Shown: positions 465-54,574, counted from the stretch's first letter. The stretch is DNA of 64,000 nucleotides from Lentisphaeria bacterium (GCA_041690595.1 JAWLHB010000007.1:186001-250000); one strand, 5' to 3'. Notes: generated by a model not told the origin, from the letters alone. Translations and numbers: made by a program.

Positions 465-1115
465 ATGAAAAGGCAGAGATTCACCCTTATCGAACTACTG
501 GTTGTGGTGGCGATTATAGCGATTCTGGCCTCGATGCTTCTGCCCGCGCTGGGCAAAGCCCGCCTGCGCGCCCGCAACATCCAGTGCAGCAACAACCTCA
601 AGCAGATCGGCCTGGGCATGATGGGTTACGGGGATGAGTATGATCGGTTTCCCGCCAGCACCACCAACAACGACCTGAAGGAACTGCGCTGGTACAAGAG
701 CGTTCAGCCCTACATCAATGCTGCCACTCCGACCAGTAACAACCGCATGCTCCAGTGTCCCGCCGACGTCAATATGCATGTCTACAAGATCAGCTATGGC
801 ATGAACTACTACTGGGGACTCTGGCTGAGTGCCGCGAGTGGATGGGACGTCGGGATGCCGAGCCGCTCGACGACGCCCAGCGATACCATTATCGTGGCCG
901 AAAGCGTCGATCCGACCAACTTTCCGGCTGCTCCCGGCAGTGGACACACCATCTTCTATCTGACGGCCAACTTCGGCGATCGCTTCGAGATTGCGCGTGC
1001 CAGCCGCCACCCCACCAACTGGAATGCCGTCTTCATCGACGGCCATGTGGAAGGTCGATCGGGTCGTCCCACGAACGTAGCGAAGAGCCCCTTCTGGGGC
1101 GATCCTCGTCCGTGA
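465..1115 (+). CDS. Prepilin-type N-terminal / H-X9-DG domain protein (DUF1559-like) #1
   Basis: [42 protein letters not shown] motif, C-terminal [14 protein letters not shown]. Confidence 0.9.
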
Positions 1116-1117
1116 GC

Positions 1118-4100
1118 CTACTCCCGCGGGCGTAAGGTAAAGGTTGTTTCGGTCGTGAGGTTGGTAAGGCGTTCGTTGAGGCGCAGTATCCATGTGCCTG
1201 GGGTATCGTTCAGGGCGGTGGGGATGCGCAGAGTGCCGCGGCCATCGCGCATGGAGACGTTGGTGGCGTAATGGGAGCGCGCCATGCCGTCGGGACCGAT
1301 GACGTCGGCCCGGATCACCGATACGGGCGCGGAGCAGCCACGCAACTCCACCTGCACGAGCTCGCCTGCCTGGACTTCCGTCAGTTCGGTCGAGGGTGGG
1401 GGGGCTGGCGCACTCTGCAGCGCCAGGAGCCTGACTTCGCCATGAGCCATGGTGAAGGCTATCCGCGTGCCTTCGCCGATCCATTCACCCGTGCGCACAT
1501 CGAGCGCCCGCGCCGCGGTCGGCAGGACCAAGAGCATCTCTCCGGCGGATTCGGGAAAGCGATGATCTTGGATCAGGCCGAGAAGGGGGATGTCACCGTT
1601 GGGGTACAGCATGCGTTCGATACCGTGAACGGCCTCGCCGTTCGGCCATTCCAACTTGGCGGGGGGCAGCACGTCGTGGCCGGTCAGCAGGTCGCGCAAG
1701 TGAGCCGACATCACCGCAAAGGCGGGGTCCGATGGTACGTAAGCGGGGAGGATGAAGTTCGCGTAGTGGGCCGCGCCGGCGCCGACCGACATGCTGGCAA
1801 TGGCAACGAGGCCACCGGCGAAGCGCGCGTTGGCCTCGGCGCCGACGAGGGCGATGGCATCGCCGCCGTGGAGTTGCACCGTGTCGTCGTCCGCCAGGGC
1901 CGTCAGACTGTAGGCCGGAAATCGTTGGGGCTGGCGACTGACGCCGAAGAGCTCCTTCAGCCAATGATCGTCAACCGGTGTTCCATCCCCATCCACGCTG
2001 CCGCAGTTGGGGCCGGCGATGATGGTGCCGCCGGCGCGGGCGAATGCCGCGATGGCGTCACGCGTTGCCGCATCCACGGATGGGGCGGAACCGAGAAAGA
2101 GGAGCTTGTAGTCCGCGAGTCTGCCATCGGCAATAAGCCTCGGGGTGACGAAATCCCATTGGTAACCGTTGTCTTCGATCAATTTGCGCATGTGCTCCAT
2201 GTTGGCGAGGTAGGCGCCCTGAGCGTTGGTGGGCATGCTGTCGTTCTTGTTGGTCGTGAGGGACTGCGCCCAGGCAGTGGCCAGAGACTCCTGGCTGAAG
2301 AAGATCGCGACCTCGGCCTGTGGCGCGGGCAGGTCGTGAAGCAGGCGCCCGACCCCTTCGAGCAAGGGACGCATCTCCTGACGAATGGAGGCCCATGCGG
2401 CGGTGGTGCGCAGATCGGCGGTGAAGTAGCTGTGCAGCGGATGACCGAAGTAGTAGAGGCTGGCGCCGCTCGCGCCATGCAGCGCCCAGTACCAGGGCAG
2501 ATAGGCGTTCGACTTGCCATGGCTGGCGCCATAGCCGAACCACCCGAGCTGCTTGCTCTCCGGCGCCAGCGACCGCACCAGTTCCCGCTCGTAAAGATAG
2601 TTGGGACTATCGAGCCCGTGGGGGCGCATGTCCATGGCGTAGGTGCCGAAGAGGTTCAGCCGGGTGGCCATGGCATCCATATCCCAGCCGGAGTACCAGC
2701 GCATCAGGCGCGTGTTCTCATAGCCGACCAGGCAGTGTGGAAGACGCGCGCGCACCAGGTCGCCCACCCGCGCACTGGCCGAGGTGAAGACATGATCCAT
2801 GAAGCGCCGGAAGACGACAAACTCGGCGACATTGTCGCGTTCCCTTGCCTGGCTGTAGGTGATCAACCCCGGCTCCTCGAAGGAGGCGTAGGTGGTGCTC
2901 CATGCCGTGTTCATCGCCTCGACGTTCCCGTACTTCTCCCGCAGCCATACGCGATAGGCAGCCAGCGTGTGCGCCGAGTCGCAGAGATCCAGGGTCGGGT
3001 TCGAGAGCACGAGAGCGGCCTCGTCCTCGATCACCAGCATGGCCGGATTGACGATCGCCATGTCTTCGCAGAAATTGCTGAAGGCTCGATCCAGTGTCGC
3101 CAGAGTCTCGGGATCGTTCAAGCAGGGGTGACGGGTGTTGCCGACCACCTTGGGATTGTCGGTGAAGTTGTGGCCGCGATAGCCACGATTGTTGAACTTT
3201 GTCTGGTATCCCCAGAACTGGGTGAGCATTTCTCCTTCGAGAGGGATCTGCAGGCCATTGAGGCCATCGCCGCCAGCCGCCAGAAAGCTGTTCACGCCCA
3301 TGTCGTCGCGCAGCAGGTCGATGATGGCCGGGACGGTATGCGGCGGAAAGACGGAGGTGCCAAGGACGGAAATGAGGAAGTTGAAGGTGTAGTCGTTGAG
3401 GCGCTCGGTGACGTCCAGGCGCTGATGGACGTACGTGTGCGCCGTCGTGATGCGCACCCCCTCCTGAACCAGCTCCACGGTGGCGATTGCCTCATGTCCA
3501 AGCCAGCCGGCCGGCTGCAGGTCGACCTGCCAGCGTCCGGCATCGTCGAGCGCCAGTGGCTGCTCGATCGTCGCCAGAAGTCGCTTCCGGTGATCGGTCA
3601 GCCGTGCATGAAGGTGATAGGCGCCATCGGACAGCCCCGCGGCTTGACCGCTGATGCGCACTGCCTTGCCGGGCGCCACGCGCGGCGTTGCCGCTTGCAG
3701 ATCGAGCAGCCGCTCCTTTCGTCCCCCCTGGCGATGGAGCAGCCGCCAATCGGTCACGCCGCCGTCGGCATCACACGCGCGCAGGATGAGGAACTGGGTG
3801 CCCGCCAGGCCAGTGGTGGGGAAGGGGACGCGTGCTTTGCCCGCGGCAAGGGGAAGCTCCTGCTCGCGCACCAGTCGCCAATAGCTGTCGCGGTGTTCCG
3901 TCTTGAGAGTGACGCCCGCAACCTCCACCTCGACCGCGTCGTCGCCCATGATCGTGCGGCCGGGGAGGTCGCGTTGCGCCGCCCAGCGGATGGCTCGCGC
4001 CATGAGGGCATAGTAACTCTCCCAGTAGGGCCAGGTACGCTCGCGGTACTGCTCGTAGCTCTGCCGGGTATCCGGATAGAGCCAGTAGCCGCGCACCGCG

Positions 4101-6373
4101 TGCAGCTTCAGGCTGACGGTTCGCCCGTTTCCGACTTGGCCAGCGGCCACGTCGCGCAAGTAGTTGGCGGGCAGCAGGGCCAGGGGCAGATCCGTGGTCA
4201 CGGGATGCGGCAGCGCCTGCTCCGGTGCACGGATATCGAAGATCGCTTCCAGATCGCCCGTGCCTGACGGCAGGCCACTGGTGGTCACCAAGCCGGTCCC
4301 TTCGCGCACGCGGTCGAGGATGGCCTCCCAGTAATCGCCCTGGGAGATCGGCATGCCGCAGACGATGACGTCATAGTAGCCTGCCTCCAGCCGCCGGTTC
4401 ACCTGCTCATGAGTGTAGGAGAGGAGCCGTCCCTCCCACGGCTTGATGACGTCGTAATCCAGGCCGATACGCTGGGCGATTTCGACTGGAATGCGCCCCT
4501 CGGCATAGTTGTTGTAGCTGCCGCTTTCGTCCTGGCCGCGCCCCGGGAGGATGAAGAGCACCTTCATCGGGCCGCCGCTCAAGGGGCGAGCCCAGGGCAG
4601 ATGGGGCGTCACCGGCGGCTCCCCGAGGGGCTGCATGTCCGCCTTGCGCAAGGCTTCGCCCTGATTACCGATATTGAGGCTGACCCGCGCCCCCGAAAGG
4701 CTGATGGCGGCAAAGCCGGCACTGCCATTATCGGCGGCCTGCACCAGCTCGATGGCGTCGACGGAACGGGTGTTGGCTGGAAAGCGCAGCGTCGCTTTTG
4801 CCGGCGCAAAGGCCTGGTCCTGCCGCGGCTCTCCCAGCGCGTCCAGCACGCCAGTGCTGCCGTCATCCAGAGTATAGGTCAGGCGGACGAGGGGCCGACC
4901 GCCGCCGCGGCCGATAAGCTCTGCTTTCAGGCGATACTCACCACCCCCCGGCCATGCCAGGCCGATCGGTTGACTGGCGATCGTCCCCGCTGCGTCACGG
5001 ACCACCGCCCAATTGCCGCTCAGCTGACGGGTCTCTTCGCAGCGACTTTCCGGCGCCAGATCCCACCCATCCGCCGGCACCTCGTTATAGCCGGGATTGA
5101 AATCGCCGTTGCTGACCAGGTCGATGCGGCTCTCGCGCTTCCATGGGCCGATGCCACGCAGGCGCCCTTCGGAAGGCAGGGAGCCGTCGATGAAGTAGCC
5201 GCGCGGGAAGAATTCCGGAGTCCGGTAGTAGCGTGCGGTTCCCATGAAGCTCCACGTGGTCCAGGCCTTGTTGACCATATCGTTGAAGCAAAGCTGCATC
5301 CCCCATTCTTCGCTCGGCAGGGGAGCGGCTTCGCGACCGAAAGCTGCCCAGGGGATCGCTGCCTCCATGGTCAGCAGCCCGTCGGTGCTCCGCGCCTGGA
5401 GACTGACGGGAGCGCCATCACGCGGTTTGCCATCCACGTAATGTTTCGTCTCGCCCTCCTGGGCAAGTATCCACTGGTAGACGGGGCCTTGACGATCCGG
5501 CTGCGCGAAGAACTCCACGGTATCGGCGGCGCCATCCGCGGCGCCGGCCACGCTGAAGAGCAGGTAGAGGTGCTGGGCGTCCGCCGCCAGGCGGAAGGAG
5601 CCGGAGCGTCGCGCTGGCGTCGGCTCGCTTTTCACCCGCATGTCATGGAAGCCCACGTACTCTGGAAGGGTCGCCCAGATCGCCTCGTCGCCGGCGCCGT
5701 CCACGGTGACAGGCGCCTCGATGCGGGCCACCTTCAGGGCGGGTCGATAGAGGAGTTCCTCGCGTGCGCCGATGGAGAGATCGTCCAGCCACACGCTTTT
5801 CACCAGTCCCCGCTGGTGCAGGTAGAGCCGAAAGAGGTCGACATAGCCCACCGCGTGCAGCATGGGCAGTCCCATCGCTCCATGACGATCGTCAAGAACG
5901 ATGTCGTAGGTACCGGCGCTGCAGTCAAAGTAGAGCTTCAGGTGATACCATCGTTCGCTCTCCAGCGGTGCCTCCGGGAAGAGCGGTTCCATGCCGTCCG
6001 GGGTGTGCCGCTGCAGCGCCTCCCCATCCCGCATCGAGAGTCGAAAGATATCTTCGTTGTTGCCCTTGAGGTAGAACTTGAGCCAGGCGCCCTTCTCCAG
6101 CTTGAGTCGCAGGGAGAGAACACCATTGATCATGCGTCCGAAGCTGGCCGAGACATTGCAGACTTCGCCATTTCCCAGGCTTTCGATCTGGAGACACTGG
6201 TCTCCGGCGGCCTCGTCTCCACCGGCGACCCGGGCAAACGTTCCTTTCTCCAGACGCATTCCAGCTTGCTCCAACTCGCCCCGGCTGCTAAAGTCAAACC
6301 AGAGCGCTTCGGCCATTGCCGTGCAGGAGACGCATAGCAGGGCGATTGCAGCCAGGGGTAGTCGATGCTTCAT
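1118..6373 (-). CDS. Giant secreted multidomain glycoside hydrolase-like protein, 1751 aa (beta-sandwich/CBM9-like modules + GH42-like domain + trimerisation domain)
   Basis: True start MKHRLPLAAIALLCVSCTAMA (signal peptide) at 6373 inside the 2217-aa ORF. CBM9-like VDGAGDEAIW...YLLF...MEAAIPW; GH42-like YRVWLREKYGNVEAMNTAWSTTYASF; trimerisation-like VAIFFS...WDFV...YKLLFL...FARAGGTII. Confidence 0.7.
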   Translation of the reverse strand: MKHRLPLAAIALLCVSCTAMAEALWFDFSSRGELEQAGMRLEKGTFARVAGGDEAAGDQCLQIESLGNGEVCNVSASFGRMINGVLSLRLKLEKGAWLKFYLKGNNEDIFRLSMRDGEALQRHTPDGMEPLFPEAPLESERWYHLKLYFDCSAGTYDIVLDDRHGAMGLPMLHAVGYVDLFRLYLHQRGLVKSVWLDDLSIGAREELLYRPALKVARIEAPVTVDGAGDEAIWATLPEYVGFHDMRVKSEPTPARRSGSFRLAADAQHLYLLFSVAGAADGAADTVEFFAQPDRQGPVYQWILAQEGETKHYVDGKPRDGAPVSLQARSTDGLLTMEAAIPWAAFGREAAPLPSEEWGMQLCFNDMVNKAWTTWSFMGTARYYRTPEFFPRGYFIDGSLPSEGRLRGIGPWKRESRIDLVSNGDFNPGYNEVPADGWDLAPESRCEETRQLSGNWAVVRDAAGTIASQPIGLAWPGGGEYRLKAELIGRGGGRPLVRLTYTLDDGSTGVLDALGEPRQDQAFAPAKATLRFPANTRSVDAIELVQAADNGSAGFAAISLSGARVSLNIGNQGEALRKADMQPLGEPPVTPHLPWARPLSGGPMKVLFILPGRGQDESGSYNNYAEGRIPVEIAQRIGLDYDVIKPWEGRLLSYTHEQVNRRLEAGYYDVIVCGMPISQGDYWEAILDRVREGTGLVTTSGLPSGTGDLEAIFDIRAPEQALPHPVTTDLPLALLPANYLRDVAAGQVGNGRTVSLKLHAVRGYWLYPDTRQSYEQYRERTWPYWESYYALMARAIRWAAQRDLPGRTIMGDDAVEVEVAGVTLKTEHRDSYWRLVREQELPLAAGKARVPFPTTGLAGTQFLILRACDADGGVTDWRLLHRQGGRKERLLDLQAATPRVAPGKAVRISGQAAGLSDGAYHLHARLTDHRKRLLATIEQPLALDDAGRWQVDLQPAGWLGHEAIATVELVQEGVRITTAHTYVHQRLDVTERLNDYTFNFLISVLGTSVFPPHTVPAIIDLLRDDMGVNSFLAAGGDGLNGLQIPLEGEMLTQFWGYQTKFNNRGYRGHNFTDNPKVVGNTRHPCLNDPETLATLDRAFSNFCEDMAIVNPAMLVIEDEAALVLSNPTLDLCDSAHTLAAYRVWLREKYGNVEAMNTAWSTTYASFEEPGLITYSQARERDNVAEFVVFRRFMDHVFTSASARVGDLVRARLPHCLVGYENTRLMRWYSGWDMDAMATRLNLFGTYAMDMRPHGLDSPNYLYERELVRSLAPESKQLGWFGYGASHGKSNAYLPWYWALHGASGASLYYFGHPLHSYFTADLRTTAAWASIRQEMRPLLEGVGRLLHDLPAPQAEVAIFFSQESLATAWAQSLTTNKNDSMPTNAQGAYLANMEHMRKLIEDNGYQWDFVTPRLIADGRLADYKLLFLGSAPSVDAATRDAIAAFARAGGTIIAGPNCGSVDGDGTPVDDHWLKELFGVSRQPQRFPAYSLTALADDDTVQLHGGDAIALVGAEANARFAGGLVAIASMSVGAGAAHYANFILPAYVPSDPAFAVMSAHLRDLLTGHDVLPPAKLEWPNGEAVHGIERMLYPNGDIPLLGLIQDHRFPESAGEMLLVLPTAARALDVRTGEWIGEGTRIAFTMAHGEVRLLALQSAPAPPPSTELTEVQAGELVQVELRGCSAPVSVIRADVIGPDGMARSHYATNVSMRDGRGTLRIPTALNDTPGTWILRLNERLTNLTTETTFTLRPRE

Positions 6374-6435: not shown

Positions 6436-6472
6436 AGTTTCCCCACAATAAGCTTAAAACAAGGTTTTGGCC

Positions 6473-7780
6473 ATGCCGGGAATCGAACATACCCATATCA
6501 CCCGTCTCGCCTGTAGCCGACTTCCTTCGTGGCAGCAGCAGTTCATCGATAGCCAGCGGCAGGCGCTCATCGACACGTACTGCAAGCTGCCCGACATGTA
6601 CTTCGATACCACCGGGGAGAACTACCTTTTCGCCAATCGCTACTACTTTGCCACTGACGGCATCCAGTTCCACTATCTTCCCGATACACCCGTGGTGCCC
6701 CTTTACCGCTACTACGGCGTCGATCGTGAGCAGCAGCGCCTGCATCTGCTGCAGGATTACAAGAACAGCAATTGGCGCCATGCGTCCCGGGGCTTCACCT
6801 GGTACACCCGCCATGCCATCGAGGCGTTGCGCGAAGGGAATCTGGCAGACGGCTTGGCTTATGCCGGTTGGCTCCTCCACATGCTGCAGGACTACAGCTA
6901 CGGTAATCACAGCCTGGAAGGTCCGTACGGCACCGACATCTTTGTCCTCAATCGCCTCTTTCCCGAAGCCGACGATCCGGATCTCGACCCGATGACCATT
7001 GTCAGCCGCTCCGCTCCGCCGCCGGAAGCCGATCAGCTTGTCGATCTCACGCCGCGGCTGCTCGGCGTCACCCCCGAAGAGATTGCCCTTCATCTTTACA
7101 CGGAGCACCTTCGCACCACCTGCCAGGCGCGACAGCTCTGCCTGCAGATCGTCGTCAATGCCCGGCAGAACAATGCGCACCTCAACGCAGAACTTTTTCA
7201 CCGCATGTATCGCGGCGCGGTTCAGCTCAGCGCCAGCGTTCTCTATACGCTTGTCTGCAATGCGAGCCAGCAGTGGCCGGAGACGGATCTGGATGCGCTT
7301 CGACGCGTCTGGCTCAGCGATCTCGAGCCGATTCAACGCCCGTGGCTCCTTTCCTCGCCGTACCGCACGCGCGCTCTCATGCGCGACACGGCGCTGGCTC
7401 CGGATCGTACCCGCATCCCACTCTCCATTCTCCCGGCCAAGGGAGAGCCGGCCACGACGATTGGGAAGGGCTTTGGCCTGGGCGCACACTACGAATGCCG
7501 CATTGCCTACGAGCTTCCCGCGGGGCTCTATGATCGCTTCACCTGCCGCATCGGCCTGCAGTCCCAGGTGGCGGAGTTGGGTGATGTGCGCGTGGCCTTG
7601 ACTGTTGACGGCAGGGAGCAGGCAGCGGGGCGTCTCCATGCCGACCAACCTGCCATCGCGGTGGATGTGGCTGATCCCGCCGGCCGGCTGGAACTCTCCG
7701 TCGTCAGCGATGTCGGACTGGCTGCTCCGCACAATCATCTTGTCTGGGCGGAGCCACTGCTTCACCGGCATTCGATCTAA
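6473..7780 (+). CDS. Zn-dependent phospholipase C/S1-P1-like domain fused to C-terminal NPCBM/NEW2 carbohydrate-binding domain
   Basis: N-terminal EHTHIT and GWLLHMLQDYSYGNH (HxxxD...H); C-terminal KGFGLGAHYECRIAYEL...FTCRIGL...VDG NPCBM pattern. Confidence 0.6.
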   Translation: MPGIEHTHITRLACSRLPSWQQQFIDSQRQALIDTYCKLPDMYFDTTGENYLFANRYYFATDGIQFHYLPDTPVVPLYRYYGVDREQQRLHLLQDYKNSNWRHASRGFTWYTRHAIEALREGNLADGLAYAGWLLHMLQDYSYGNHSLEGPYGTDIFVLNRLFPEADDPDLDPMTIVSRSAPPPEADQLVDLTPRLLGVTPEEIALHLYTEHLRTTCQARQLCLQIVVNARQNNAHLNAELFHRMYRGAVQLSASVLYTLVCNASQQWPETDLDALRRVWLSDLEPIQRPWLLSSPYRTRALMRDTALAPDRTRIPLSILPAKGEPATTIGKGFGLGAHYECRIAYELPAGLYDRFTCRIGLQSQVAELGDVRVALTVDGREQAAGRLHADQPAIAVDVADPAGRLELSVVSDVGLAAPHNHLVWAEPLLHRHSI

Positions 7781-43151: not shown

Positions 43152-46100
43152 ATGCACGCGTTTCGTGAGGACGAGCGACTCTGGGATCGTGAAGCATCGT
43201 TGTGGGAGATGGCACAGACGGTCACCTTGAAGAGAGCCGTGCCGTCGGACAACCCGATGCCGGAGGGGATGTGGCAGTGCGGGCCCACGCCGGCGGTGAA
43301 CTTGAGTACGCAGAAGTTGAAGGCGGGGCTCTGGGGAGCGCCGGAGTCGCTGACGCTGAGCCTGGGCAAGACGGATGTCTGGGACCGCCGCCAGGGGTGG
43401 GCGAAGCCGTTGACGCTGGCGGAGATTCGCGAGGGTGCATTCTCCGCGGCCAATGCGGGGATAAAGCCAACGCAGAGCGTCGGTGGATACCTGCTGCCGG
43501 AGGGGGGTGCGGCGGAGCGTTACCGCTATCATGGGGCGTACGCGTTTCCGTGCCCGAAACCGGTTGGGCAGGTCATTCTTCGTTGCGCGGAGTTCGCGGG
43601 CGCCCGGCAACCGGAATCGGCCATTTCCTGTGCGGACGGCACCGCTCGGCTCGCGCTACGGCATGGGCAGGTAAGCCTGGAGACGACCTGGCTCGCCATG
43701 ATGACACGCAATCTTGTCGCTATCCGCTTTGCGGGGCAGGGGTTGGCGAGGCCACCCGCGCTGCGCCTGTACCGTCATCGGGATACGACGGGGCTGGGAC
43801 GCCAGTTGCGGGATGACCAGTACGACTATGCCGCGGATGTGGGCTTGGACATTCCGTTTGGCCCACCGGTGGCTGGGAAGGATGATCGCTTCTTCTGGGT
43901 TCGCCAGCGCTTTCCGGCCGAGAAGACCTTTCCGGCCGGGTTCGAGTACGTGTTGATGGGGTTAGTCGTCGAGGACCGGGTCGCGTTGGAGGCGGTGAAC
44001 GACATGTGCGGCATGGGCACGAAGGCCGCGGAGCGAAAGACAACCGGTCGCGCGTTTTCGGGAATCCGGATTGCGGGCGAGGAGAATGACAGCCCGGGTT
44101 CCGCCGCGACCGCGCAGTGGGCGCAGGGCCGCCAACAGGGGACGGCGCTGGTGGTTGTGGTGACGAGTGCGGAGTCCGGTGAGCCCATGGAAGAAGCTCG
44201 TCGTCAACTGCTGGCGGCGGAAGGGATGGGATGGGACGGTCTGGTAGCCGAAAACGCCGGGTGGTTCCACGATTTCTACGAGCGGCGCGAAAGGGGACGG
44301 GTCTTCAGCGGCTCAAACGAGCTTCTTCGCCTGCGCATGCCGTTTGTCTTTCGCAGCTGGAGTGCGGCGCCCGATGTGATGGCCGAGTCGTACCTGACGC
44401 ACCCAGACCCAACACGTTATGAGGCAGATGAGAGCTATGCCATGCTTGGGGACTCTAGTCCGTTTCACGGCTTGCCCTGCTACAACGAGATCTATTGCAC
44501 CGGCCAGCACGTGCTGAATCGCAGCGACCGCGTCAGCTATTGGCCGAAGCTGGCAACCCACTGGCTGGAGGCTGCCAAGGAGAACGCCCGTACGGTCTTC
44601 GGTCTTCCCGGCGCCTTCGGCCCGACCCACGGTTATCTGCCGCCGATAAAGGCGGACGCGTACGCGCATTGCTCGTCGATCTGGGAGTTCTGCATGGAGA
44701 GCCCGGCTCAGGTGCTCAAGGTGGCCTGGGATACCTGGGATTATGGCGGTGACGATGGCTTTCTGGCGGGCATCGTTTATCCAGCCCTGCGTGAATTGGC
44801 TATTTTCTATGCGGCGTACGTCACCCTTGGGGAGGACGGCAAGTACCATGTCATCCCGACGGTTTCGGCGGAACACTGGGGATGGACCTACCAGTTTGCG
44901 CGCAATCGGGATTCGTCCTCTGCGCTGAGCCTCTTTCGCTGGACGCTGGAGGCGGCTATTCAGGCTTCCGAACTTCTGGAGCGGGATGCCGAGTTGCGCG
45001 AGGGATGGCAGGACGTAGCGCTGCGCCTGGCGGCTTATCCAACGACAAAGGATATGGAAGAGGCGTTTCGGCGGGAGCGGGAGACGAGGTCTGAAGCGGC
45101 GGAGATCCAGGGGGAGTGCGTATTCCCGCGGGAGTGGTCGGTTTTCGGTCCGGTCGGCGCAGACGCGCCAGAGCCCGATTTCGCAGGTATCGGCGAGCTG
45201 CCGGCCGAGCTGATGATTGCTGGTGAACGCCTTGCTGCCCGGAAGGGGGTGTTCAGCCGCAATCGCCTGGACCTTGGCGAGCTTCTCGGAGGCATAGAAA
45301 GCGGGAAAGCCGCCTACCTGCTGGCGGACATTTTGGCCGACCGGGAGATGGTGGCCACCTTCAGCGCCGGTGCCGATTGGTGGATGAGGTGGCGGTTCAA
45401 CGGCGAAGTGGTCTGCGACACGTTTCCGGCCGGAAATCGCGCGCACCCCCCCAGTCTGCTTGACCACCGGTTCACGGTTCACCTCAAATCGGGGACGAAT
45501 CGTATTGCCGTGAAGGTCGTCGGCGGGACCGGCAGTTTCATGTTGGTGGCGGGTGGCCCGTACGAGGTGCGCGGGGAGCTGCGTGAGCCAAGTTGGCTGG
45601 CGAGGATCGCGGAGGAAGGCTGCGTTTACTGCGGCGAGGCTGGTGTCAGTCCCTTCGAGTCATCGTTCAACTTTTATCATGGCGTGACGCCTACGCTTCT
45701 GGCCGATCGGATACACCTGGATTCCGAGCCCGGTGAAATCGAGGTCATGTTGCGTACCGCCCGGTTAACCGGCGGGTGGCGCAACCGCGATGTCTTTCAT
45801 CTGCTGGGCGCCTATCCGGCGCTGCGCAAAGGGGTGCTTGCTTCCCAATACTTCGACGCCAAACCGGACGAGCCGATAGATACGCCGGAGAAACTGTTGG
45901 AGGTCATCGCGGAAGAGCCGGAACGGCTCCTCAATTCCCGCTCGGGTCGTATTCATCTGTTTCCGTGCGTGCCGCCGGGCACGACCATCGCTTTTCGCGA
46001 TTTTCAGGCACGCAACGGGTTCCTGGTATCGGCAGAAATGGTTGAAGGCCGGGTCACCTTTGTTCGCATCGCGGCCCGTCGAGATGTCCTCTGCCAGGTG

Positions 46101-46244
46101 ATGAACCCCTGGCCCGGCCGCCCGCTTGTCGTGTGTGGCGACGAAGACGGTCGAGACGTAGCGCACGAGATGGACACGGTGCGGGGGGAATGCCTGCTTT
46201 TCCATGGAGAAAGCGGCCATTCGTACCGATTGGCGCCGTTGTAA
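43152..46244 (+). CDS. GH95-like (alpha/alpha)6 glycoside hydrolase with inserted beta-sandwich module
   Basis: LSLGKTDVWD, HVIPTVSAEH, C-terminal LLNSRSGRIHLFP...ARNGFLVSA; start uncertain (43074-43209). Confidence 0.7.
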   Translation: MHAFREDERLWDREASLWEMAQTVTLKRAVPSDNPMPEGMWQCGPTPAVNLSTQKLKAGLWGAPESLTLSLGKTDVWDRRQGWAKPLTLAEIREGAFSAANAGIKPTQSVGGYLLPEGGAAERYRYHGAYAFPCPKPVGQVILRCAEFAGARQPESAISCADGTARLALRHGQVSLETTWLAMMTRNLVAIRFAGQGLARPPALRLYRHRDTTGLGRQLRDDQYDYAADVGLDIPFGPPVAGKDDRFFWVRQRFPAEKTFPAGFEYVLMGLVVEDRVALEAVNDMCGMGTKAAERKTTGRAFSGIRIAGEENDSPGSAATAQWAQGRQQGTALVVVVTSAESGEPMEEARRQLLAAEGMGWDGLVAENAGWFHDFYERRERGRVFSGSNELLRLRMPFVFRSWSAAPDVMAESYLTHPDPTRYEADESYAMLGDSSPFHGLPCYNEIYCTGQHVLNRSDRVSYWPKLATHWLEAAKENARTVFGLPGAFGPTHGYLPPIKADAYAHCSSIWEFCMESPAQVLKVAWDTWDYGGDDGFLAGIVYPALRELAIFYAAYVTLGEDGKYHVIPTVSAEHWGWTYQFARNRDSSSALSLFRWTLEAAIQASELLERDAELREGWQDVALRLAAYPTTKDMEEAFRRERETRSEAAEIQGECVFPREWSVFGPVGADAPEPDFAGIGELPAELMIAGERLAARKGVFSRNRLDLGELLGGIESGKAAYLLADILADREMVATFSAGADWWMRWRFNGEVVCDTFPAGNRAHPPSLLDHRFTVHLKSGTNRIAVKVVGGTGSFMLVAGGPYEVRGELREPSWLARIAEEGCVYCGEAGVSPFESSFNFYHGVTPTLLADRIHLDSEPGEIEVMLRTARLTGGWRNRDVFHLLGAYPALRKGVLASQYFDAKPDEPIDTPEKLLEVIAEEPERLLNSRSGRIHLFPCVPPGTTIAFRDFQARNGFLVSAEMVEGRVTFVRIAARRDVLCQVMNPWPGRPLVVCGDEDGRDVAHEMDTVRGECLLFHGESGHSYRLAPL

Positions 46245-46801: not shown

Positions 46802-46850
46802 TTGCATTGGACTGGTTGAGCTTCTATACTATCGAGAGTCTTCGTAGAAC
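46802..46850 (+). promoter_or_regulatory. Sigma70 promoter plus downstream operator-like site
   Basis: TTGCAT-17bp-TATACT (46802-46830); AGTCTTCGTAGAAC (46837-46850) is 11/14 identical to the palindrome at 53502. Confidence 0.65.
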
Positions 46851-46904: not shown

Positions 46905-49460
46905 ATGAGACGGATCTGGATCAGAAGGTGTACGTGGTTTTTCGGCATCGTGGCAGCACTATTTATCAGCGGAGCGATGAGCATGAAGGGGCAGGAGGTT
47001 GCCATTACGAAGAATGGAGAGCCGGCAGCGAGCATTGTCATCGATCGGGATGCGAACCGGGCGGCGCGCTTTGCGGCGCTGGAGCTTCAGCATCATGTGC
47101 AGGCGATCAGTGGGGCGGTTCTGCCGATCGTCCATGATGGTGAGGCGGTGACAGGGCTGCCGATTCTGGTGGGGGAGAGCGCCGCGACCCGCGCGCTTGG
47201 CCTGGAGAGCAGTAGTTTTGGTCGTCAGGAGTACCTGGTGCGAATCGGGCAGGAGAGGATCGTCCTGATGGGGCGCGACCGGGAGGACAAGGGGGAGCCG
47301 AATCTGGACTTTGTTGCGAACCCGAATGCGATACAGAGCTGGCCCTCGGTGTGGCACGAGCAGGGCAGCATGTACGCGGTCTATGATTTTCTGCGGGATC
47401 ATTGTGGGGTGCGCTGGTTCAATCCGACGGATGTGGGCACGGTATATCCGACGGCGGCAACGCTGACAGTGAGCGGGGCGGAGGTACAGCGGAAGCCGTT
47501 CATGTGGTATCGCGGGGGTACCATGATTGGGCAGCCGGAGCGGGTTCAGTGGGGCGGTGGGCTCTGGCGAAGCGGCACCGCGGAGGGAGAGAATTACATG
47601 GAGCTGGGGTATGCGAGTCTTTATGAAGCCCAGTCGCACGTGAATAGCCGGAACCTCGGTCTGCGGGCGCAGAACACGCTCTTCATGCTGCGCCAGAAGG
47701 GCGGGGGAGAACAGGCGCCCTGCAATCATTCCTTCTACAATTTCTATGAACGTTTCCATACCAAGGGGCACGAGAACTTCGAAGCATATCGACCGGAGTT
47801 TTTCGCGCAGGGGTACAGCGGCGAGAAGCCGCCACAGATGTGCTACTCCAACGACGGCTTTGTCGCGCAGGTGGTCACGGACATCCGCAGCTACTTCGAC
47901 AATGGCGGCTATCAGAAGCGGATGAGCGGAATCGGGACACCCGGGTACACGTGGGGCGAGAACTTTTTCGCGCTGGAACCGATGGACAATTCGGCTTTCT
48001 GCAAGTGCGACGCCTGTACCCCCCAGTATGAGCTGGATCGTCCGCGGGCCGAGCAGCACAGCACCTACTGGTTTCGCTTTGTCAATCGGGTTGCCAACGA
48101 GATAGCCAAGTCGCATCCGGATAAGAAGATCACGACGCTGGCGTACATGACGCACGAAGGGCTGCCGACGAACCTGAAGGTTGCCGACAACGTCATCGTC
48201 TACTTCTGTATCTCGGGCAATCGCATGCCGTACTCGCCGCTGCTCGACCGCCAGATGGCGCTGCTGGATGAATGGCACCGGAAGGAGAATGTGCCCATGA
48301 GTCTGTGGCTCTACAATACCTTCCCTTTGGAGATCGCGAACAATGGCAAGTTCTTCTGCTTCCCGGGTTTCTTCGCGCATGAACTGGACAAGCAATTCAA
48401 GCGCTTCCGGGAGTATGAGATCAACGGCATCTTCCACTGCGGCTTCAATGGCGAGGTGGCGAACTACCTCTGCTATCGGCTCATGGATGATCCGGATGCC
48501 GACGTGGATCTGCTTCTCGATGACTATTTCAGCAGCTTCTATGGGCCTGCCGGGGCGGCGCTGAAGAGCTTCTATACGCTGGTCGAAGAGCGCTACTGCA
48601 ATCCGGAGAATTATCCGAAGCAGGGGGACGAGCCGTATGGCGGTCATCAGGACGTGCGCATCGCCTGGAAGCATCTGGGCAATGCGGAGACGATGACGAA
48701 GCTGGCCGAGTACATGGCTGAGGCTCACGCCGCCGCCGTGACCCCGGAGCAGAAGCAGCGTGTGGCGCTCTGGGATCAGGGTGTCTACCAGTACATGAAG
48801 GCGGGTTACGAGAGCTTCAACCGGCGTATGTCCGCCCCCATCCCGGAAGTGATCGCGCCGCGGGTCCCGTTGGCGCAGGGTGATCCGAACGCGGTTTCCT
48901 GGGAGCAGGCCGGCGTGCTGGTGACGACCATGTACGACCGCGGTTCGGAAACGCCGATCCCCTTCAAGGTGACGGGCCGGGTGTGCCACGATGGCGACTA
49001 CCTGTACGTCGAGCTGATCGACCATTGCGATCCGTCAAAGCTGGAAGTCTCGCCCCAGATCGCTTGCTACGATGACTGGGAGGTGATGTTCGCCCACCAG
49101 CGGGCGCAGCCTTTCCGGCAGTACATGTTTGGGCCGACCGCCATGACTCAAGGCCTCTCCTATGGGGAAGTGAACTGGCGGCAGGGGGTAGTGGCGGCGG
49201 AGTATACGGACCATGCCTTCGGCGCAAAGGCCGTCAGCGACACTTCCGGTGAAGGCTGGGTGCTGCGCCTTGCCTTTCCCTTGGAGAAGATGCTGGAGAA
49301 GCCGGTCCTGCCGGGCGAGACGATTTACAGCAATCTCATCCGGGTACGAGGGCCGGCGCTGAACAAGAGCTTCGGTCCCGGCTTCGGAATCGAGAGCTGG
49401 GTCAGTTACATGACGGTGAAGGAGGTCGATCGCGCCGGTGCGATCACCCTCGCGAAGTAA
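46905..49460 (+). CDS. Secreted DUF4838-type protein with C-terminal CBM9-like domain
   Basis: Signal peptide; [50 protein letters not shown]...LRLAFPL. Confidence 0.8.
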
Positions 49461-49536: not shown

Positions 49537-50256
49537 ATGATGCATGCTTCCATTCGGTTTCGCTTCACCCTGATCGAGCTGCTGGTCGTGGTGGCGATTA
49601 TTGCCATCCTTGCATCGTTGCTGTTGCCGGCGCTGAGTCAGGCCCGTGCCATGGCGAAGAGCACGCAATGCATCAACAAACTGAAACAGATGGGAATGGG
49701 GTGCGCCATGTACATCGGCGAGTGGGACGGCTACTTTCTGGATGGTTCTCCCTGCCCCATGCTTCCTGAGGCGATCCATCCATACCAGCCTTATAACTGG
49801 ATGCGTCGGCTGGCGGAGTATCTAAGCCTGCCGGACAAGAACCGGCTCAAGCCGGTGGAAGACAAGGCGAAGACCTTCACCTGTCCGCAGGAGCCTGCCG
49901 GGGAGTTTAACGGCAATTATCCATCGTGGCACATCAATCAGTTCATCGCCAGCTTCGGCAGTCCCGGAAGCTTTAAGGCGGATCGCCCGCGCAAGGCGGA
50001 CTCGATCACGTTGCCTTCGGCCAAGGTTTACTTTGGCGGCGGCACCATCAACAGCGCCTTCTATCACGGCTTCTTCTATCCGTCTTACCTGACGACCGGC
50101 CAGTTGGAGATGCGCCATCCGGGCAGCAAGGTCAACATCCTCTTTGTCGATCTTCATGCGGGCTCCTTTGGGGCGCCGCCTCTGCCATCGGCGGCGAACG
50201 TGCCGCTTGCCAGCAAATGGCTCATCGAAGGCCATGGAGCGGCGCCAGGACTGTGA
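49537..50256 (+). CDS. Prepilin-type N-terminal / H-X9-DG-like domain protein #3
   Basis: [62 protein letters not shown]. Confidence 0.9.
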
Positions 50257-50270
50257 GCTGTCGATCGCGC

Positions 50271-53200
50271 TTATTTGTCTGCCATGGCTTGCAGTCCCGC
50301 ACGAAAGCGCGCCGCGATTTCGGTAGCGGTAAGGGCGCGATCGTAGAGGGAGACTTCATCCATCATCCCGCGGAACTGGAGGTGACGTACGTTGGTGTGT
50401 GGCAGGCCCAGGCGCAGGGCTCCCGCCATGCGGCGGAGGGGCACGCGGATGGGCTCACGGGAGGTGCCGGCATGGCGGCCATTGACGTAGGCCAGCAGCC
50501 GCTGACCATCGAAGACACCCACGACGTGCTGCCATTCGCCGGGAGTGAAGGCGCGCCGCTGAGCGTAGAGGTACTCCTGCTTTCCCTCCTGGGGATTGGC
50601 GCTCAACCAGAGGAGATTGCCTGGCCGCAGGTGCACATCGAAGGTATCGCCGGGGGCGCTGAAAAGACGGGGATAGCTGGGCTGCTCCGGCTGCGTGGTG
50701 GCGGCGGCGGTTTGTATCCAGGCTTCGAAGGTGAAGGGGGGACCGGCCTGTGGCGGGGCATCGTCGAGGCCGACCGCGGTTTCGATATCCGCCATCGCGT
50801 CGTCCGGGGTCACCTCGGCTCCGGCGAAGGTCTCGATTCCCTGGACTTCGATCCAGGCAGCGCGTTGGTCAACGGGAAAGAGGATGCCGCGGCCGAAGGG
50901 GCTGTCGCAGCGGGTAATGGGTCCATGGATGGTGCCATGATGGTTGTTGCCGGAGCTGTCGAGGACGGATTCGCCATCGTCTTCGAAGCGCCAGCGCGCG
51001 ACGAGCCCGGGGCCATCGGCATTACTGGTGGGTGGGGGCGCGGGGTCGAGGCTGATGCGGGCATAGCGGGGAGCATGATCGTATCCGGCGAAGGTGGGGA
51101 CCCAGATGGGCTGGTCTGGATCGCCGGGAGAGCGCCTGGCCGCGTTGAGCAACAGGGCGCCGCCGGGGCGAAGTCCGTCCGCCGTCAGCTCCGCCAGGGG
51201 GATGGCGGCGTAGAGTTCCCAGCCATCCTCGGTGACCGTCGAACCCGTGGAGGTTGCATCCAGACGGAACTCTCGCACCTCGCCATCGGTCTTGGCGGCC
51301 GTCAGCACCTGCCAGTAATCGTCCTTGGTGGGTGCGGCGCCTTTCTCAGTGAGTCGCACGTAGAGGAACTCGTCATCGTGGGTGATGCGTCCGATGATCT
51401 GGCGTTGAGATGCTTCGCAGGCGAGCCCGGTCCAGCGCATCATGGGGGTGGCATCGTGCCAGTCTACCCGCCGCGGATCGTGATCGGGCACCGGCTCGAA
51501 GACGAATGGCGAGGAGAGGTGGGGCACGCTGTACCACCCCTTCATCTGCTCTTCGTATTGGGCTTTTCCCTGCTCCAGGTACTGCCAGACGGCCAGGTCG
51601 AAGAGCTGGAATCGATCCTGCTGGATTGGACTGGCATCGAGTATGGCGACCCGTGCCTGATCCATGATGGTCCGCAGTTCCGCCATGCGTGGGCCTGTTC
51701 CGAGCCACGCCCAGGCGATGATCTGATGCTGATGCCCATTGAAGTTGGGCGGGTAGCTTGTCGGATCGCAGTAGATTTGCTCGATACGCTCGTAGAGTTG
51801 ACGCAGCGGCTTGCCTGCCGGTCCGTAGCCGCGGGTGAAATACTCGTCGAGGAGGTGATCTATATCGAGGGTCACGTCGTCGAGGAGGGCGAAGGTGACG
51901 TATGCCTCGACGTCTTGACCGAAGCCGTTCATGAAGAAGCCGCGGACGCCCGACTGGTGAAAGTACTTGAATTCGCTGGCGATGGTGTGGGCGAAGAAGC
52001 CCGGAAAGACGTGCCAGCTCGGCTTCTCGCCACGATTGGCCATTTCCGTGGGGAAGCAGTAGTAGAGCCACATGTAGAGAGGATGATCTTGGGCCGCCCA
52101 CTCGGCGAAGAGACGGTGTTCATGCTCCCAGCTCTCCCGCGCGTAGGGTGCACGGATATGCATGCAGTACTGCACGTCGATGTTGGAAGCCAGGGTAAGG
52201 TCGCGGGGATAGGCCGCATACTGAGAGTAGGCGAGGGCCGCGACGCGTTTCCCGGGATACGCTTCGCCCACGGCCTCGGCGGTCCGGTTGATCACTGGCC
52301 AGACCAGATCGCTAGCGATTCCATTGGCAAAGGTGTAGGGCTCCTCGAGCGGCCGCAGCCTGGCCTGACAGTCCGCGCACTCGCAGTAACCGCCGTTATC
52401 CATCGGCACCACGGCGTATCGCTCCGTTCCCCAAAATTGGTTGCGGTCCGCGAGCGGCTGTCCGCTGTTGGGGTTCAGGGGGGTACCGCCGAACCAGGCC
52501 AGCGCGTCGTCCACAATCTGTTGCTGGACGGCTGGATTGGTGTAGCAGGGCTGCTGGGGGCGGCCCAGGTTGTCGAGCGTCTTGGCGAACCAGTCCGGAC
52601 GCTCCTCCACGAAGATATCGGGATTGCGCGGGTTTTGCTTCCAGAAGCGGTCGTAGAAGTTGTAGAGGGAGTGGTTGGCGCTGAAGAAATCTCCCCCGAC
52701 CCGTTTGCGGTACAGGAAGGCACGGTGCGTTCCGCGCTTGGCCCAATTCTGGTAGGTGTGCTCGTGGGTGAACTGTTCGCGCATGCGTGGGTAGGCCGCG
52801 GCTTCATAGGCGGCGAAGCCATCCGATGCCGGATGCCAGAGCGAGGTGAAGGAGTCGTACCATTGGCTGTGAACGAGGGTGAAGACGTTGCGGGTGGGGA
52901 AGGAGGGTTGACGGCGAACCTCCATCTCCTCGACGATGAGTGTGCGGCGGGGCTCGAAGTCGGTTCCTACCTCGACAGGCGACAGCCAGCGAATGCCGCA
53001 GCCACGCTCCAGAAAGTCGTAGACCGCCCAGAGGGTGGCCTTTCGATCCCAGAAGCCCGGCCAGGTGGTGATGTCATAGATCTCATGCGCACCATGTTTG
53101 ACGCGGTAGCTGACTTTTTCGTGGTCGGGGGCGTCCCGGCCGGCCAGCAGCAGCTCGTTCGGCGTCACCCGCACCAAGTATTCCTGGTCCTCGAAAACTT

Positions 53201-53441
53201 CGGTGTCGATGCCATGGCCGATGCGTATCGGCAGCAGCTCCTGAGGTTCCTCATGGAGGATCGGCAACTGGGCGCCGGTGATCAGGAAGATGTGTGCCTG
53301 CAGTTCATAGGCGGCCAACTGCGCGGCCTTCGTCGGCTCCTCTTCCAGCACGATTGCCGCGCGGACCGCGCCCTCCTCGACCAAGGTCAACCCATGAAGC
53401 AGGGGGCAGAGCAGCAACAGCACGGACATCAGCTTTTTCAT
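50271..53441 (-). CDS. Secreted DUF4838-type protein + CBM9-like + C-terminal LamG domain
   Basis: Signal peptide; TLWAVYDFLERGCGIRW, NHSLY, PCYTN, YCECADC; LVARWRFE...WQHVVGVFDG...FRGMMDEV. Confidence 0.82.
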   Translation of the reverse strand: MKKLMSVLLLLCPLLHGLTLVEEGAVRAAIVLEEEPTKAAQLAAYELQAHIFLITGAQLPILHEEPQELLPIRIGHGIDTEVFEDQEYLVRVTPNELLLAGRDAPDHEKVSYRVKHGAHEIYDITTWPGFWDRKATLWAVYDFLERGCGIRWLSPVEVGTDFEPRRTLIVEEMEVRRQPSFPTRNVFTLVHSQWYDSFTSLWHPASDGFAAYEAAAYPRMREQFTHEHTYQNWAKRGTHRAFLYRKRVGGDFFSANHSLYNFYDRFWKQNPRNPDIFVEERPDWFAKTLDNLGRPQQPCYTNPAVQQQIVDDALAWFGGTPLNPNSGQPLADRNQFWGTERYAVVPMDNGGYCECADCQARLRPLEEPYTFANGIASDLVWPVINRTAEAVGEAYPGKRVAALAYSQYAAYPRDLTLASNIDVQYCMHIRAPYARESWEHEHRLFAEWAAQDHPLYMWLYYCFPTEMANRGEKPSWHVFPGFFAHTIASEFKYFHQSGVRGFFMNGFGQDVEAYVTFALLDDVTLDIDHLLDEYFTRGYGPAGKPLRQLYERIEQIYCDPTSYPPNFNGHQHQIIAWAWLGTGPRMAELRTIMDQARVAILDASPIQQDRFQLFDLAVWQYLEQGKAQYEEQMKGWYSVPHLSSPFVFEPVPDHDPRRVDWHDATPMMRWTGLACEASQRQIIGRITHDDEFLYVRLTEKGAAPTKDDYWQVLTAAKTDGEVREFRLDATSTGSTVTEDGWELYAAIPLAELTADGLRPGGALLLNAARRSPGDPDQPIWVPTFAGYDHAPRYARISLDPAPPPTSNADGPGLVARWRFEDDGESVLDSSGNNHHGTIHGPITRCDSPFGRGILFPVDQRAAWIEVQGIETFAGAEVTPDDAMADIETAVGLDDAPPQAGPPFTFEAWIQTAAATTQPEQPSYPRLFSAPGDTFDVHLRPGNLLWLSANPQEGKQEYLYAQRRAFTPGEWQHVVGVFDGQRLLAYVNGRHAGTSREPIRVPLRRMAGALRLGLPHTNVRHLQFRGMMDEVSLYDRALTATEIAARFRAGLQAMADK

Positions 53442-53498
53442 TCTCTTCTCCTCATCACTTATGCCTTGAAGGACGCTTGTGAAATGTCGGTAGCCCTA

Positions 53499-53518
53499 TA
53501 TAGTCTACGTAGACTCTA
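53499..53518. promoter_or_regulatory. Perfect 14-bp palindrome AGTCTACGTAGACT (53502-53515), candidate LacI operator in divergent promoter
   Basis: TATAGTCTACGTAGACTCTA (18/20 self-complementary), central CG as in LacI operators, overlaps a TATAGT -10-like element. Confidence 0.7.
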
Positions 53519-53542
53519 CATGATTACAAGTTGGGGATGGAA

Positions 53543-54574
53543 ATGGCACTATCGGTGAATCAGACGCACTTGGCGCAGCGTCTCGGCCTCTCGCAACGGG
53601 CCGTGAGCAAAGCACTGCGCGGGCAGCCGGGCGTTTCCGAGGCTACGCGGGCGAGGGTGATGGCGATGGCTCAGGAATGCGGCTACCGCCCCAACCGTCT
53701 GGCCCGCGCGCTAGCGGACGGCGCCAGCAAGGTCATCGGCATGCTTACGCCAGCCTTTGGCGGCAGCTATTTCAGCGACCAGATCTTTGCCGCCCAACGT
53801 TACCTCGATGAGCATCAGTACGGGCTGCTGCTCTCGCACTGGCGACAGAACGACCCCACTGATGACAGCGACATCAACATTATGCTCCAGCACCAGGTTG
53901 ACGGCATCCTGAGCATTCCCAAAGCGATTGTTCCATGGAAAGAGTCGATCTACGCGGAGTTGGCGGAGCAGCAGGTCAGCATCGTCTGCATCGGTCAGGA
54001 GGTTCCCCTGCCGGGATTCTGCTCCGTCTGTTCGGACGATCTGAACGGCAGTCGGCGCGCTACCGAGTTTCTGCTGCGGCTTGGTCACCGTCATGCTGTT
54101 TATATCGGACCGCTGGCTCCCCTCTCCTCGTCGCAGATCCTGCGCCGTCAAGGTTATGAAGAGGTGATGGTTGCCGCGAGTTTGACGCCAGTTGCGGTCG
54201 AGACTGGTGTGGGAGATCACGGCAGCAGCATGCGTGATGCGGTTATCGCTACGGTCATCAAACGGCCTGAGGTTACCGCCATCATCTGCTACAACGATAC
54301 GGACGCGCTGCATGCAATAGATGCGCTGCATGGGATGGATCTTTCGGTGCCGGAAGATATTTCGGTGGTGGGCTTCGGTAACGATCTCCCTTATCCCGAG
54401 CACATGCAGGTGCCCCTCACCACCGTCAATCAATCGGCCGAAAGCTTGGGCCGTCTTGCCGCTACACAGCTTCTGCGTATGATCGCGGGCGAAGATGTCA
54501 GCGGCACTCATCTCGTTCCCACGGAGTTGGTCATCCGCCGAAGCACCGCCAAGCCAGTAGACCGGGGCGCTTGA
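53543..54574 (+). CDS. LacI-family transcriptional regulator
   Basis: LAQRLGLSQRAVSKALRG...YRPNRLARAL; GHRH, VPEDISVVGFGN, LTTV. Confidence 0.93.
   Translation: MALSVNQTHLAQRLGLSQRAVSKALRGQPGVSEATRARVMAMAQECGYRPNRLARALADGASKVIGMLTPAFGGSYFSDQIFAAQRYLDEHQYGLLLSHWRQNDPTDDSDINIMLQHQVDGILSIPKAIVPWKESIYAELAEQQVSIVCIGQEVPLPGFCSVCSDDLNGSRRATEFLLRLGHRHAVYIGPLAPLSSSQILRRQGYEEVMVAASLTPVAVETGVGDHGSSMRDAVIATVIKRPEVTAIICYNDTDALHAIDALHGMDLSVPEDISVVGFGNDLPYPEHMQVPLTTVNQSAESLGRLAATQLLRMIAGEDVSGTHLVPTELVIRRSTAKPVDRGA

Follow-up and report, generated by a model that had tools for sequence, protein, structure and literature searches.

How do bacteria without a SusC/SusD system recognise and take up polysaccharides? 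This question, stated as open for Planctomycetota and Verrucomicrobiota in the available sections of two papers (PMC8857213, PMC12673574), is raised in concrete form by a 64-kb stretch of DNA from a Lentisphaeria bacterium (GCA_041690595.1 JAWLHB010000007.1:186001-250000), hereafter the window. Three genes for type IV pilin-like proteins of the DUF1559/H-X9-DG family, namely pilin A (465..1115, +), pilin B (39250..40011, +) and pilin C (49537..50256, +), lie there within cassettes of glycan-degrading enzymes. This study revealed that these cassettes belong to a type of locus found throughout the genome and in more than one phylum. The loci are best explained as polysaccharide-utilisation loci in which the recognition slot, held elsewhere by SusD or a solute-binding protein, is filled by a pilin. 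To the further reading that the pilins act as locus-specific glycan-capture subunits of a shared type IV filament machine, we give even chances. The pilin family, a link between pili and glycan uptake and a single example of induction were already known.

The source genome (G000; 8.1 Mb, 97% complete) was called with a home-made codon model, which returned 5708 genes and because of which gene starts are approximate. Its matches to Amuc_ and Verru_Chthon families, together with Atlas taxa, point to class Lentisphaeria within the Verrucomicrobiota. A hidden Markov model (HMM) of the N-terminal helix retrieved 197 open reading frames (ORFs), including 175 full-length core paralogs. A LacI/GntR regulator adjoins 73 of these 175 pilins, compared with 5.8 for random genes (maximum 15 in 2000 draws). 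The pilin was found directly downstream of the regulator, on the same strand, in 62 instances and directly upstream in only 7, with a median distance of 47 nt from the regulator stop to Phe+1 of the pilin. Viewed from the regulators, 101 of 135 have a pilin at most three genes away (background 13.8%); in a wider set of 142 regulators, 64 are directly followed by a pilin and 113/175 pilins have a regulator within three genes. No tested enzyme family was as close to regulators: DUF4838 proteins adjoin them in 4/67 cases, GH29 proteins (glycoside hydrolase, GH, family 29) in 2/16, and the best, a small GH42-like family, in 4/11. A LacI regulator and a pilin share one open frame in two other genomes (L096:6835-8685 and L182:6156-7997), joined in L096 at a Gly-Phe cleavage site with no Met between them; regulator-pilin fusion as a general signalling device was rejected, as none of 12 long in-frame extensions in G000 matches a regulator.

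The genes that follow the pilins are large. For the 121 genes that come next on the same strand, the median length is 817 aa versus 349, and 39% versus 6% exceed 1000 aa. DUF4838 genes lie within three genes of a pilin in 35/66 instances and members of the GH42-like paralog family in 9/11, whereas two sulfatase families (4/34 and 2/16) and GH29 (4/16) show little or no enrichment; a third sulfatase family stands at 7/19. With regard to Pfam domains, 40 pilins were drawn at random and the first half by contig order was used, giving 20 regions to set against 20 control regions (E<=1e-10; regulators, pilins and 8 short control genes were not counted). GH, lyase, carbohydrate-binding-module, sulfatase or DUF4838 domains were found in 18/86 pilin neighbours and in 6/111 control genes (p=0.0016), or, counted per locus, in 12/20 pilin loci versus 5/20 controls (p=0.054). 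The enrichment of pilins beside regulators and glycan enzymes, which an earlier sequence-only reading of the window had predicted, is borne out by these counts. A crude signal-peptide score of the neighbours (41% vs 28%) separated the two groups weakly and was not used as evidence. Head similarity also predicts enzyme neighbours above background: homologous enzymes flank 9 of the 17 pilin pairs at >=100 bits, against a background of 2.4%, and 4/28, 5/24 and 7/175 pairs in the lower similarity bins.

The layout extends to other genomes. Two Phycisphaerae metagenome-assembled genomes (MAGs) hold at least 121 and at least 83 family members. In 60 regions sampled around members with high scores, 31 of the 85 pilins that could be tested directly follow a regulator and 73/91 have one within 4 kb; the corresponding counts in the class-level relative G020 are 9/31 and 18/31. 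Among heads that match across phyla at >=50 bits, 6/13 share homologous neighbours where 0.5 would be expected, or 5/12 (about 0.4 expected) once the ascertained locus L091 is left out, several of them from one locus. The same comparison with G020 gave no head at >=50 bits and 0/19 shared. Over 30 relatives, pilin candidates per Mb correlate negatively with TonB receptors (rho -0.66); on the means of 10 families, rho is -0.63 (p=0.05). TonB receptors are absent from four 99%-complete relatives that have at least 91 pilins; family f7 combines at least 91 pilins with 0 receptors at 99% completeness, and family f5 has 2-9 pilins and 2-25 receptors. The number of secretins is unrelated to that of pilins, with 1-8 secretins in all 34 genomes.

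All three window pilins carry the family scaffold in alignment and share with DUF1559 (PF07596, SBP_bac_10) and TIGR04294 the N-terminal helix and the C-terminal H..N..DG motif; no function is attached to that family, which is known to be expanded in Rhodopirellula (74 genes; PMC2754498). The sequence-only reading had described three H-X9-DG genes in glycan loci. Their order and strands were correct, but the literal motif occurs in pilin A only, pilin B having H-X12-DG and pilin C H-X10-DL. PF07596 scored 57.3 bits for pilin A, over the cut-off, 21.3 for pilin C (cut-off 23.3) and nothing for pilin B; TIGR04294 scored 14.4 for pilin B (cut-off 19), left pilins A and C unmatched, and was exceeded by 14 paralogs among 150 scored of 327 candidates. 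Pilin A is not GspG (26 bits to TIGR01710, cut-off 88.85), and true GspG genes are present elsewhere in the genome (L001 and L014). The heads had also been judged not alignable by eye. Pairwise comparison is indeed hard, with 244 of 15,225 pairs matching at E<=1e-3, yet a common scaffold is conserved in the 175 paralogs: C36 in all 175, C-P in 166/165, H in 141, N in 145 and D-G in 152/151. The two scaffold cysteines may form a disulfide. A word-index search with the pilin B head returned only itself among 236 candidates, a full HMMER search with pilin B found 7 proteins at E<=1e-30, and an Atlas search with the head gave unnamed clusters only, plus one with PF07596 on 16% of its members.

The AlphaFold model of mature pilin B (predicted local distance difference test, pLDDT, 91.5) shows a type IV pilin fold, in which a 51-residue helix (3-53) packs on an antiparallel beta-meander with long variable loops and a C-terminal strand pair is formed from the N..DGH motif. 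Its top 19 structural matches (VIA) are all type IV pilins or pseudopilins. Between the conserved positions the loops are hypervariable, and the heads contain roughly twice as much Trp (3.8/1.8%), Tyr (6.5/2.9%) and Asn (6.4/2.8%). Such enrichment is typical of binding surfaces. Separately, a LamG/ConA head was seen on 5 of 7 other, stand-alone pilin-like proteins scanned in G000 (L191-L195). Short tandem family members of about 160 aa with Gly-1 (L011:6340-7548 and L012:1-2252), located beside O-antigen-ligase-like or sulfatase genes, are possibly conserved major pilins.

A shared machine would require assembly systems elsewhere in the genome, and these are present, as had been anticipated. 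Nineteen T2SSE-family ATPase matches exceed the cut-off, PilT-type included, alongside 6 secretin and 14 PilC/GspF domain matches. Among the systems represented are a PilB-PilB-PilT-PilC cluster, a full type II secretion system (T2SS) and partial ones, a MUL2-like operon and a Tad locus. About 53 kb to the left of the window, an operon (L003:5278-15482, G000:C7) is headed by a divergent family member, followed by genes for a secretin, a PilM-like protein, a PilO-like protein (named by position, with no family match), an unknown protein, PilB/GspE and an unknown of 732 aa. Six relatives from the same taxonomic order also have the pilin in front of the secretin (split in one), and two further contigs end too early; in 5 class-level relatives the secretin has no pilin in front, and 4 of these show the rest of the operon. 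This operon is a candidate dedicated machine. Elsewhere, a 1500-aa ORF at L008:7714-12216 combines a secretin domain with an ATP-binding cassette (ABC) exporter (membrane plus ATPase domains), as a putative fusion or read-through.

Conventional uptake systems are few. G000 has four TonB receptors, each 10-24 genes from the nearest pilin, and no match to SusD (PF07980), although the same search was positive in a Bacteroides thetaiotaomicron control. It has 31 ABC permease matches and 2 sodium/solute symporter (SSF) genes for about 140 regulators, and most pilin loci contain no permease. In the window itself, none of the 42 scanned ORFs encodes a TonB receptor, SusD or sugar ABC transporter, in agreement with the sequence-only reading.

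One published case bears on induction. According to the available parts of PMC13274419, Verruconatronum alginivorum has a PulG-like pseudopilin of 251 aa, pgaptmp_000050, whose gene lies in a cluster induced by alginate; the genome holds 67 homologues. The pseudopilin accounts for 0.513% of protein with alginate as substrate, versus 0 with sucrose or mannose (Table S3), and is the most abundant protein of its locus, the lyases reaching about 0.1% and GspG 0.064%. Other pilins of about 251 aa stand at 0.016% at most or were undetected, among 30 of 89 PILIN rows. From its length and annotation, pgaptmp_000050 is probably a family member, some pilins of that size in the genome being annotated as DUF1559. 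It resembles the present pilins in lying inside a glycan cluster and having many homologues in the genome; it differs in being a single case with an export reading and, in those parts of the paper, no genome-wide layout, head/enzyme linkage or binding hypothesis. The co-induction of pilins with adjacent hydrolases, as predicted, is on record for this probable relative in another Verrucomicrobiota species only.

A further indication of what the slot does comes from the Kiritimatiellae MAG G033, which has at least 75 LacI-type regulators and 1-2 pilins. Ten loci (L151-L160) with 14 regulators were picked from the top LacI matches. Nine of the 14 regulators are directly followed by a gene for a secreted protein of 510-830 aa with a common C-terminal G-T-hydrophobic-R tail; of the remaining regulators, 3 lie at contig ends and 2 differ. 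The nine tailed proteins comprise five with tandem LamG domains, one with F5/8 and three with no Pfam match, and none contains a catalytic GH domain. Large GH42-like and DUF4838 enzymes come next in these loci, and their best G000 match lies at most four genes from a pilin in 5/11 cases. The tail, absent from G000, is a candidate sorting signal; PEP-CTERM was rejected as its identity, given that the tails were seen without that motif, and no PEP-CTERM was found in G000. The presence of lectin-type proteins in a pilin-less slot favours recognition over export.

Export is nevertheless the alternative to be weighed first: a locus-specific pseudopilin could serve as an adaptor by which a shared T2SS recognises and pushes out the large neighbouring enzymes. 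The size of the neighbours, which often look exported, the full and partial T2SSs and the co-travel of heads with enzyme families all fit this proposal, and the authors of PMC13274419, in the sections available, favour T2SS export of the alginases. However, the T2SS operons already own canonical GspG/H/I/J/K sets, and the lectin-domain proteins of G033 resemble cargo rather than export parts. In V. alginivorum, the pilin exceeds GspG about 8-fold and the lyases about 5-fold (PMC13274419, available sections), which is more than a tip adaptor needs. The GH2, GH172 and GH95-like proteins beside pilins also have no evident signal peptide by eye. We consider this adaptor role rather unlikely.

The second alternative concerns processing. 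Phe+1 is kept in 174, Glu+5 in 174 and Pro+22 in 173 of the 175 pilins, and the hydrophobic 21-mer criterion also holds, whereas residue -1 is Gly in 14, Arg in 54 and Pro in 11; in pilins A, B and C it is Arg, Cys and Arg, the leader of pilin A being MKRQR. The bacterial class III leader is said to end invariably in Gly (PMC4471445, available text). Because Gly-1 is so rare here and in G020, cleavage is not assured, and the pilins might instead be uncleaved periplasmic binders or scaffolds anchored in the inner membrane by their helix, with heads that hold oligosaccharides or enzymes and form no filament. The earlier description of PF07596 as a solute-binding protein family (PMC2754498, citing Studholme 2004; available text) and the two LacI-pilin read-through ORFs of L096 and L182 agree with this. 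Nevertheless, the residues kept at +1, +5 and +22 are those that filament assembly requires, one family member heads the secretin/PilM/ATPase operon, and residue -1 is Gly or Ala in each of the 91 members from Phycisphaerae. Moreover, the T2SS and Verru_Chthon pseudopilins of G000 are equally degenerate, with Gly in 4 of 22 motif matches, which points to a relaxed peptidase. The genome encodes a single PilD-type prepilin peptidase with both Pfam domains (L010:6190-7446), which is long (418 aa) and has an extra sequence stretch before its second Asp motif. Relaxed specificity of this enzyme would be the simplest reading of the leaders, and an uncleaved binder seems unlikely to us. Finally, the pilins could be a repertoire of general adhesins or of surface variation, carried along in accessory DNA and functionally unconnected with the enzymes beside them. 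This would suit the tandem arrays and housekeeping contexts of some members (L064, L067, L069, L167, L169) and the huge family (154,564 clusters match pilin B at E<=1e-3, mostly through the common helix), but it is improbable in view of the fixed position and strand behind regulators in two phyla, the candidate shared operator of pilin C described below, and the substrate-specific induction of one pilin among 30 rows (PMC13274419, available sections).

In the literature searched, we found neither the order regulator, pilin, glycanase nor the degenerate -1; subscription papers and bioRxiv supplements, which lay outside the search, may describe the layout. Several known systems resemble parts of it. 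Bacteroidota SusC/SusD loci and LacI-ABC-solute-binding-protein loci combine a regulator, a recognition protein and glycanases, with one locus per substrate. The same order is observed here, with the difference that SusD is absent, TonB receptors are far from pilins, and the recognition slot holds a pilin. The Akkermansia MUL2 type IV-like pilus is tied to glycan attachment and uptake and has aquatic homologues (PMC13174399); like the present system, MUL2 (Amuc_1098-1102) is a Verrucomicrobiota pilus linked to glycan without SusC/D. It is, however, one conserved machine locus with one pilin, as opposed to about 175 variable pilins over separately regulated loci. G000 has its own MUL2-like operon (L009), matched by the Amuc_1101 (466 bits), Amuc_1098 (375) and Amuc_1100 (32) models, all below equivalog cut-offs, and the window cassettes are not MUL2. 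The available text of PMC4471445 describes two further parallels. In the Sulfolobus bindosome, sugar-binding proteins with class III signal peptides are displayed by a type IV filament machine; these have ABC solute-binding folds in a monoderm archaeon, whereas we observe hundreds of variants of an enlarged pilin-fold head in diderms. In Neisseria, the minor pilin ComP binds a polymer, DNA, which retraction then brings in, but ComP is one pilin for one ligand.

Within the window, the gene orders given by the sequence-only reading were recovered in all three cassettes. In cassette A, pilin A (leader followed by Phe+1) comes after the 3' end of a GH2 beta-galactosidase gene (1..333, +; Pfam; 1053 aa, start left of the window) and is convergent with a gene for a 1750-aa GH42-like protein (1118..6370, -), which has PF02449 and PF08532 over cut-off and, by eye, a signal-peptide-like N-terminus. 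The divergent gene beyond it encodes an NPCBM/NEW2 carbohydrate-binding-module protein (6467..7780, +). Outside the window, SSF symporter, triosephosphate-isomerase (TIM)-barrel isomerase and DeoC-like genes lie divergently upstream of the GH2 gene, the symporter being two genes upstream of pilin A. Cassettes B and C are contiguous and form one 19-kb block (35152-54574). Cassette B starts with a GH29 alpha-L-fucosidase family gene (35152..36375, -), divergent from a regulator with a GntR helix-turn-helix and a LacI-type sugar-binding domain (36587..37726, +), followed by paralog A (37750..39222, +), pilin B, paralog B (40022..41548, +), a DUF2961 protein (41622..42947, +), which we take to be GH172, and a GH95-like protein (43152..46244, +; PF22124, a partial match to the catalytic domain). 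Cassette C contains a DUF4838 protein with a signal-peptide-like N-terminus (46905..49460, +), pilin C, a convergent gene for a DUF4838 protein with a LamG/ConA-like domain (50271..53441, -) and, divergent from the latter, a LacI-family regulator (53537..54574, +). A sugar regulator had been named as part of the recurring cassette; one is present in B and C, which resemble polysaccharide-utilisation loci in the broad sense in having regulator and glycan-degrading enzymes together, but none was found for cassette A among the genes called in the window or in the adjoining 10 kb on the left.

Three pilins in 64 kb are unremarkable because the genome holds 175 full-length paralogs; local density (1.38 expected, P(>=3)=0.16) was dropped as a signal. 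A third DUF4838 gene (18833-21172, -) has no adjoining pilin. Other features of the window are an intergenic tandem repeat between cassettes B and C (46597-46759; period 29, 5.7 copies, 94% matches), shorter 9-bp repeat arrays at 31440-31500 and 42981-43013, a gene for a 1747-aa tetratricopeptide-repeat protein with a weak peptidase C39-like domain (11592-16835, -), and a divergent pair encoding a PagL-like outer-membrane barrel and an MlaA lipoprotein (24748-26390).

Candidate regulatory sites were also identified. A perfect 14-bp palindrome with a central CG (53502..53515), between the divergent LacI and DUF4838-LamG genes, is a candidate LacI operator, and a copy with three mismatches (46837..46850), just upstream of the DUF4838-pilin C unit, is another candidate operator. 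The palindrome has three matches in the window against 0.58 expected, a number reached in 2 of 100 shuffles; with up to 3 mismatches allowed, the genome contains 91 matches, of which 5 lie between genes. This sharing is suggestive of co-regulation of the pilin C unit with the LacI locus, though not proof. An 8-bp palindrome (36488..36495) in the AT-rich divergent promoter region between the GH29 and GntR-LacI genes is a possible, weak GntR operator. Consensus promoter and terminator scans did no better than chance.

Paralogs A and B, which flank pilin B, are 52% identical over 480 aa. Paralog A matched no Pfam or NCBIfam family and, from the fold of paralog B, is predicted to be a secreted glycoside-hydrolase-like TIM barrel. 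The paralog B family, which is unnamed, comprises 20 proteins found, with an invariant D-Y-E motif (D203, E205). Its model (pLDDT 89.0) resembles GH42 (Z 17.3, root-mean-square deviation, rmsd, 4.8, 367 aligned) and GH164 (Z 16.7). This barrel supports the label of unknown glycanase given by the sequence-only reading, and paralog B is predicted to be a glycanase with a clan GH-A-type TIM barrel fold. In L048, a paralog-B homologue lies behind a pilin that finds its best match among the 175 in pilin B (42%); pilin B has a close homologue ahead of a paralog-B homologue in a Phycisphaerae genome.

If the pilins do capture glycans for their loci, the system may work as follows. Released sugar would switch the LacI/GntR regulator, as the regulator family and the candidate operators suggest, and the pilin, often the first gene, would be co-transcribed with the enzymes, consistent with the layout and with the published induction of a probable homologue. 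Processing would fall to the single prepilin peptidase, which in this lineage would have to tolerate -1 residues different from Gly, and a shared, unlinked type IV pilus or T2SS-type machine, presumably one of those present in the genome, would load the pilin. The helix would be the constant assembly part, while the aromatic variable loops of the locus-specific head would bind the cognate glycan at the surface. Captured polymer would be held for the exported enzymes of the locus. Possibly, and this is the weakest step, PilT retraction pulls it through a secretin into the periplasm. Uptake of the products would be left to a few general transporters of the inner membrane.

The proposal that substrate-specific heads are carried by a shared machine thus agrees with the layout and the head/enzyme linkage, but several observations weigh against glycan capture. 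The canonical Gly-1 leader end is kept in only 14/175 pilins here and in 0/31 in G020. The structural match of pilin B has a modest score (Z 5.8 at best, with 119 aligned at rmsd 3.5), Foldseek gave no match to the model at E<=0.001, and aromatic and Asn-rich loops would equally suit protein binding or adhesion. Eight of the 20 sampled pilin loci have no glycan Pfam domain, 62/175 pilins have no regulator within three genes, and 21/175 have neither such a regulator nor a large neighbour. Co-inheritance of heads and enzymes can be explained by transfer or duplication of whole cassettes. A pilin was seen in just one of four loci with paralog-A/B homologues, and a second pilin-B homologue (L131) has no paralog-B enzyme family nearby. 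Among the relatives, the TonB anticorrelation is built on first-look candidate counts and related genomes, family f2 has up to at least 91 pilins but 0-1 LacI, and the pilins seen in G025 and G029 sit in non-glycan loci or tandem arrays. Given that some relatives are rich in pilins without LacI or outside glycan loci, the cassette is a majority layout rather than a rule. The V. alginivorum proteome consists of one replicate per substrate (PMC13274419, available sections). In G029, five family pilins stand in tandem at L169:7316-11470, in a housekeeping context with no glycanase nearby.

With regard to biology, the analysis names a concrete candidate for SusC/D-less uptake: a family that is among the largest uncharacterised ones in these phyla, whose place in the operon is fixed, whose fold is predicted and for which an induction pattern has been published. 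If the heads bind glycans, they would be a large new source of lectins, and each pilin would also flag unnamed glycanase families, such as paralogs A and B. A bolder possibility, which we hold only tentatively and regard as doubtful, is SusC/D-independent import across the phyla of the Planctomycetota-Verrucomicrobiota-Chlamydiota group, in which each substrate would induce its own pilin as the main subunit of a substrate-specific retractile filament, and this filament, built by a shared machine, would drag the polymer through a secretin into the periplasm. If this is true, the 175 heads would amount to a library of glycan binders, comparable to antibodies, on one scaffold, for which the tagged lectin proteins of Kiritimatiellae would be a convergent substitute.

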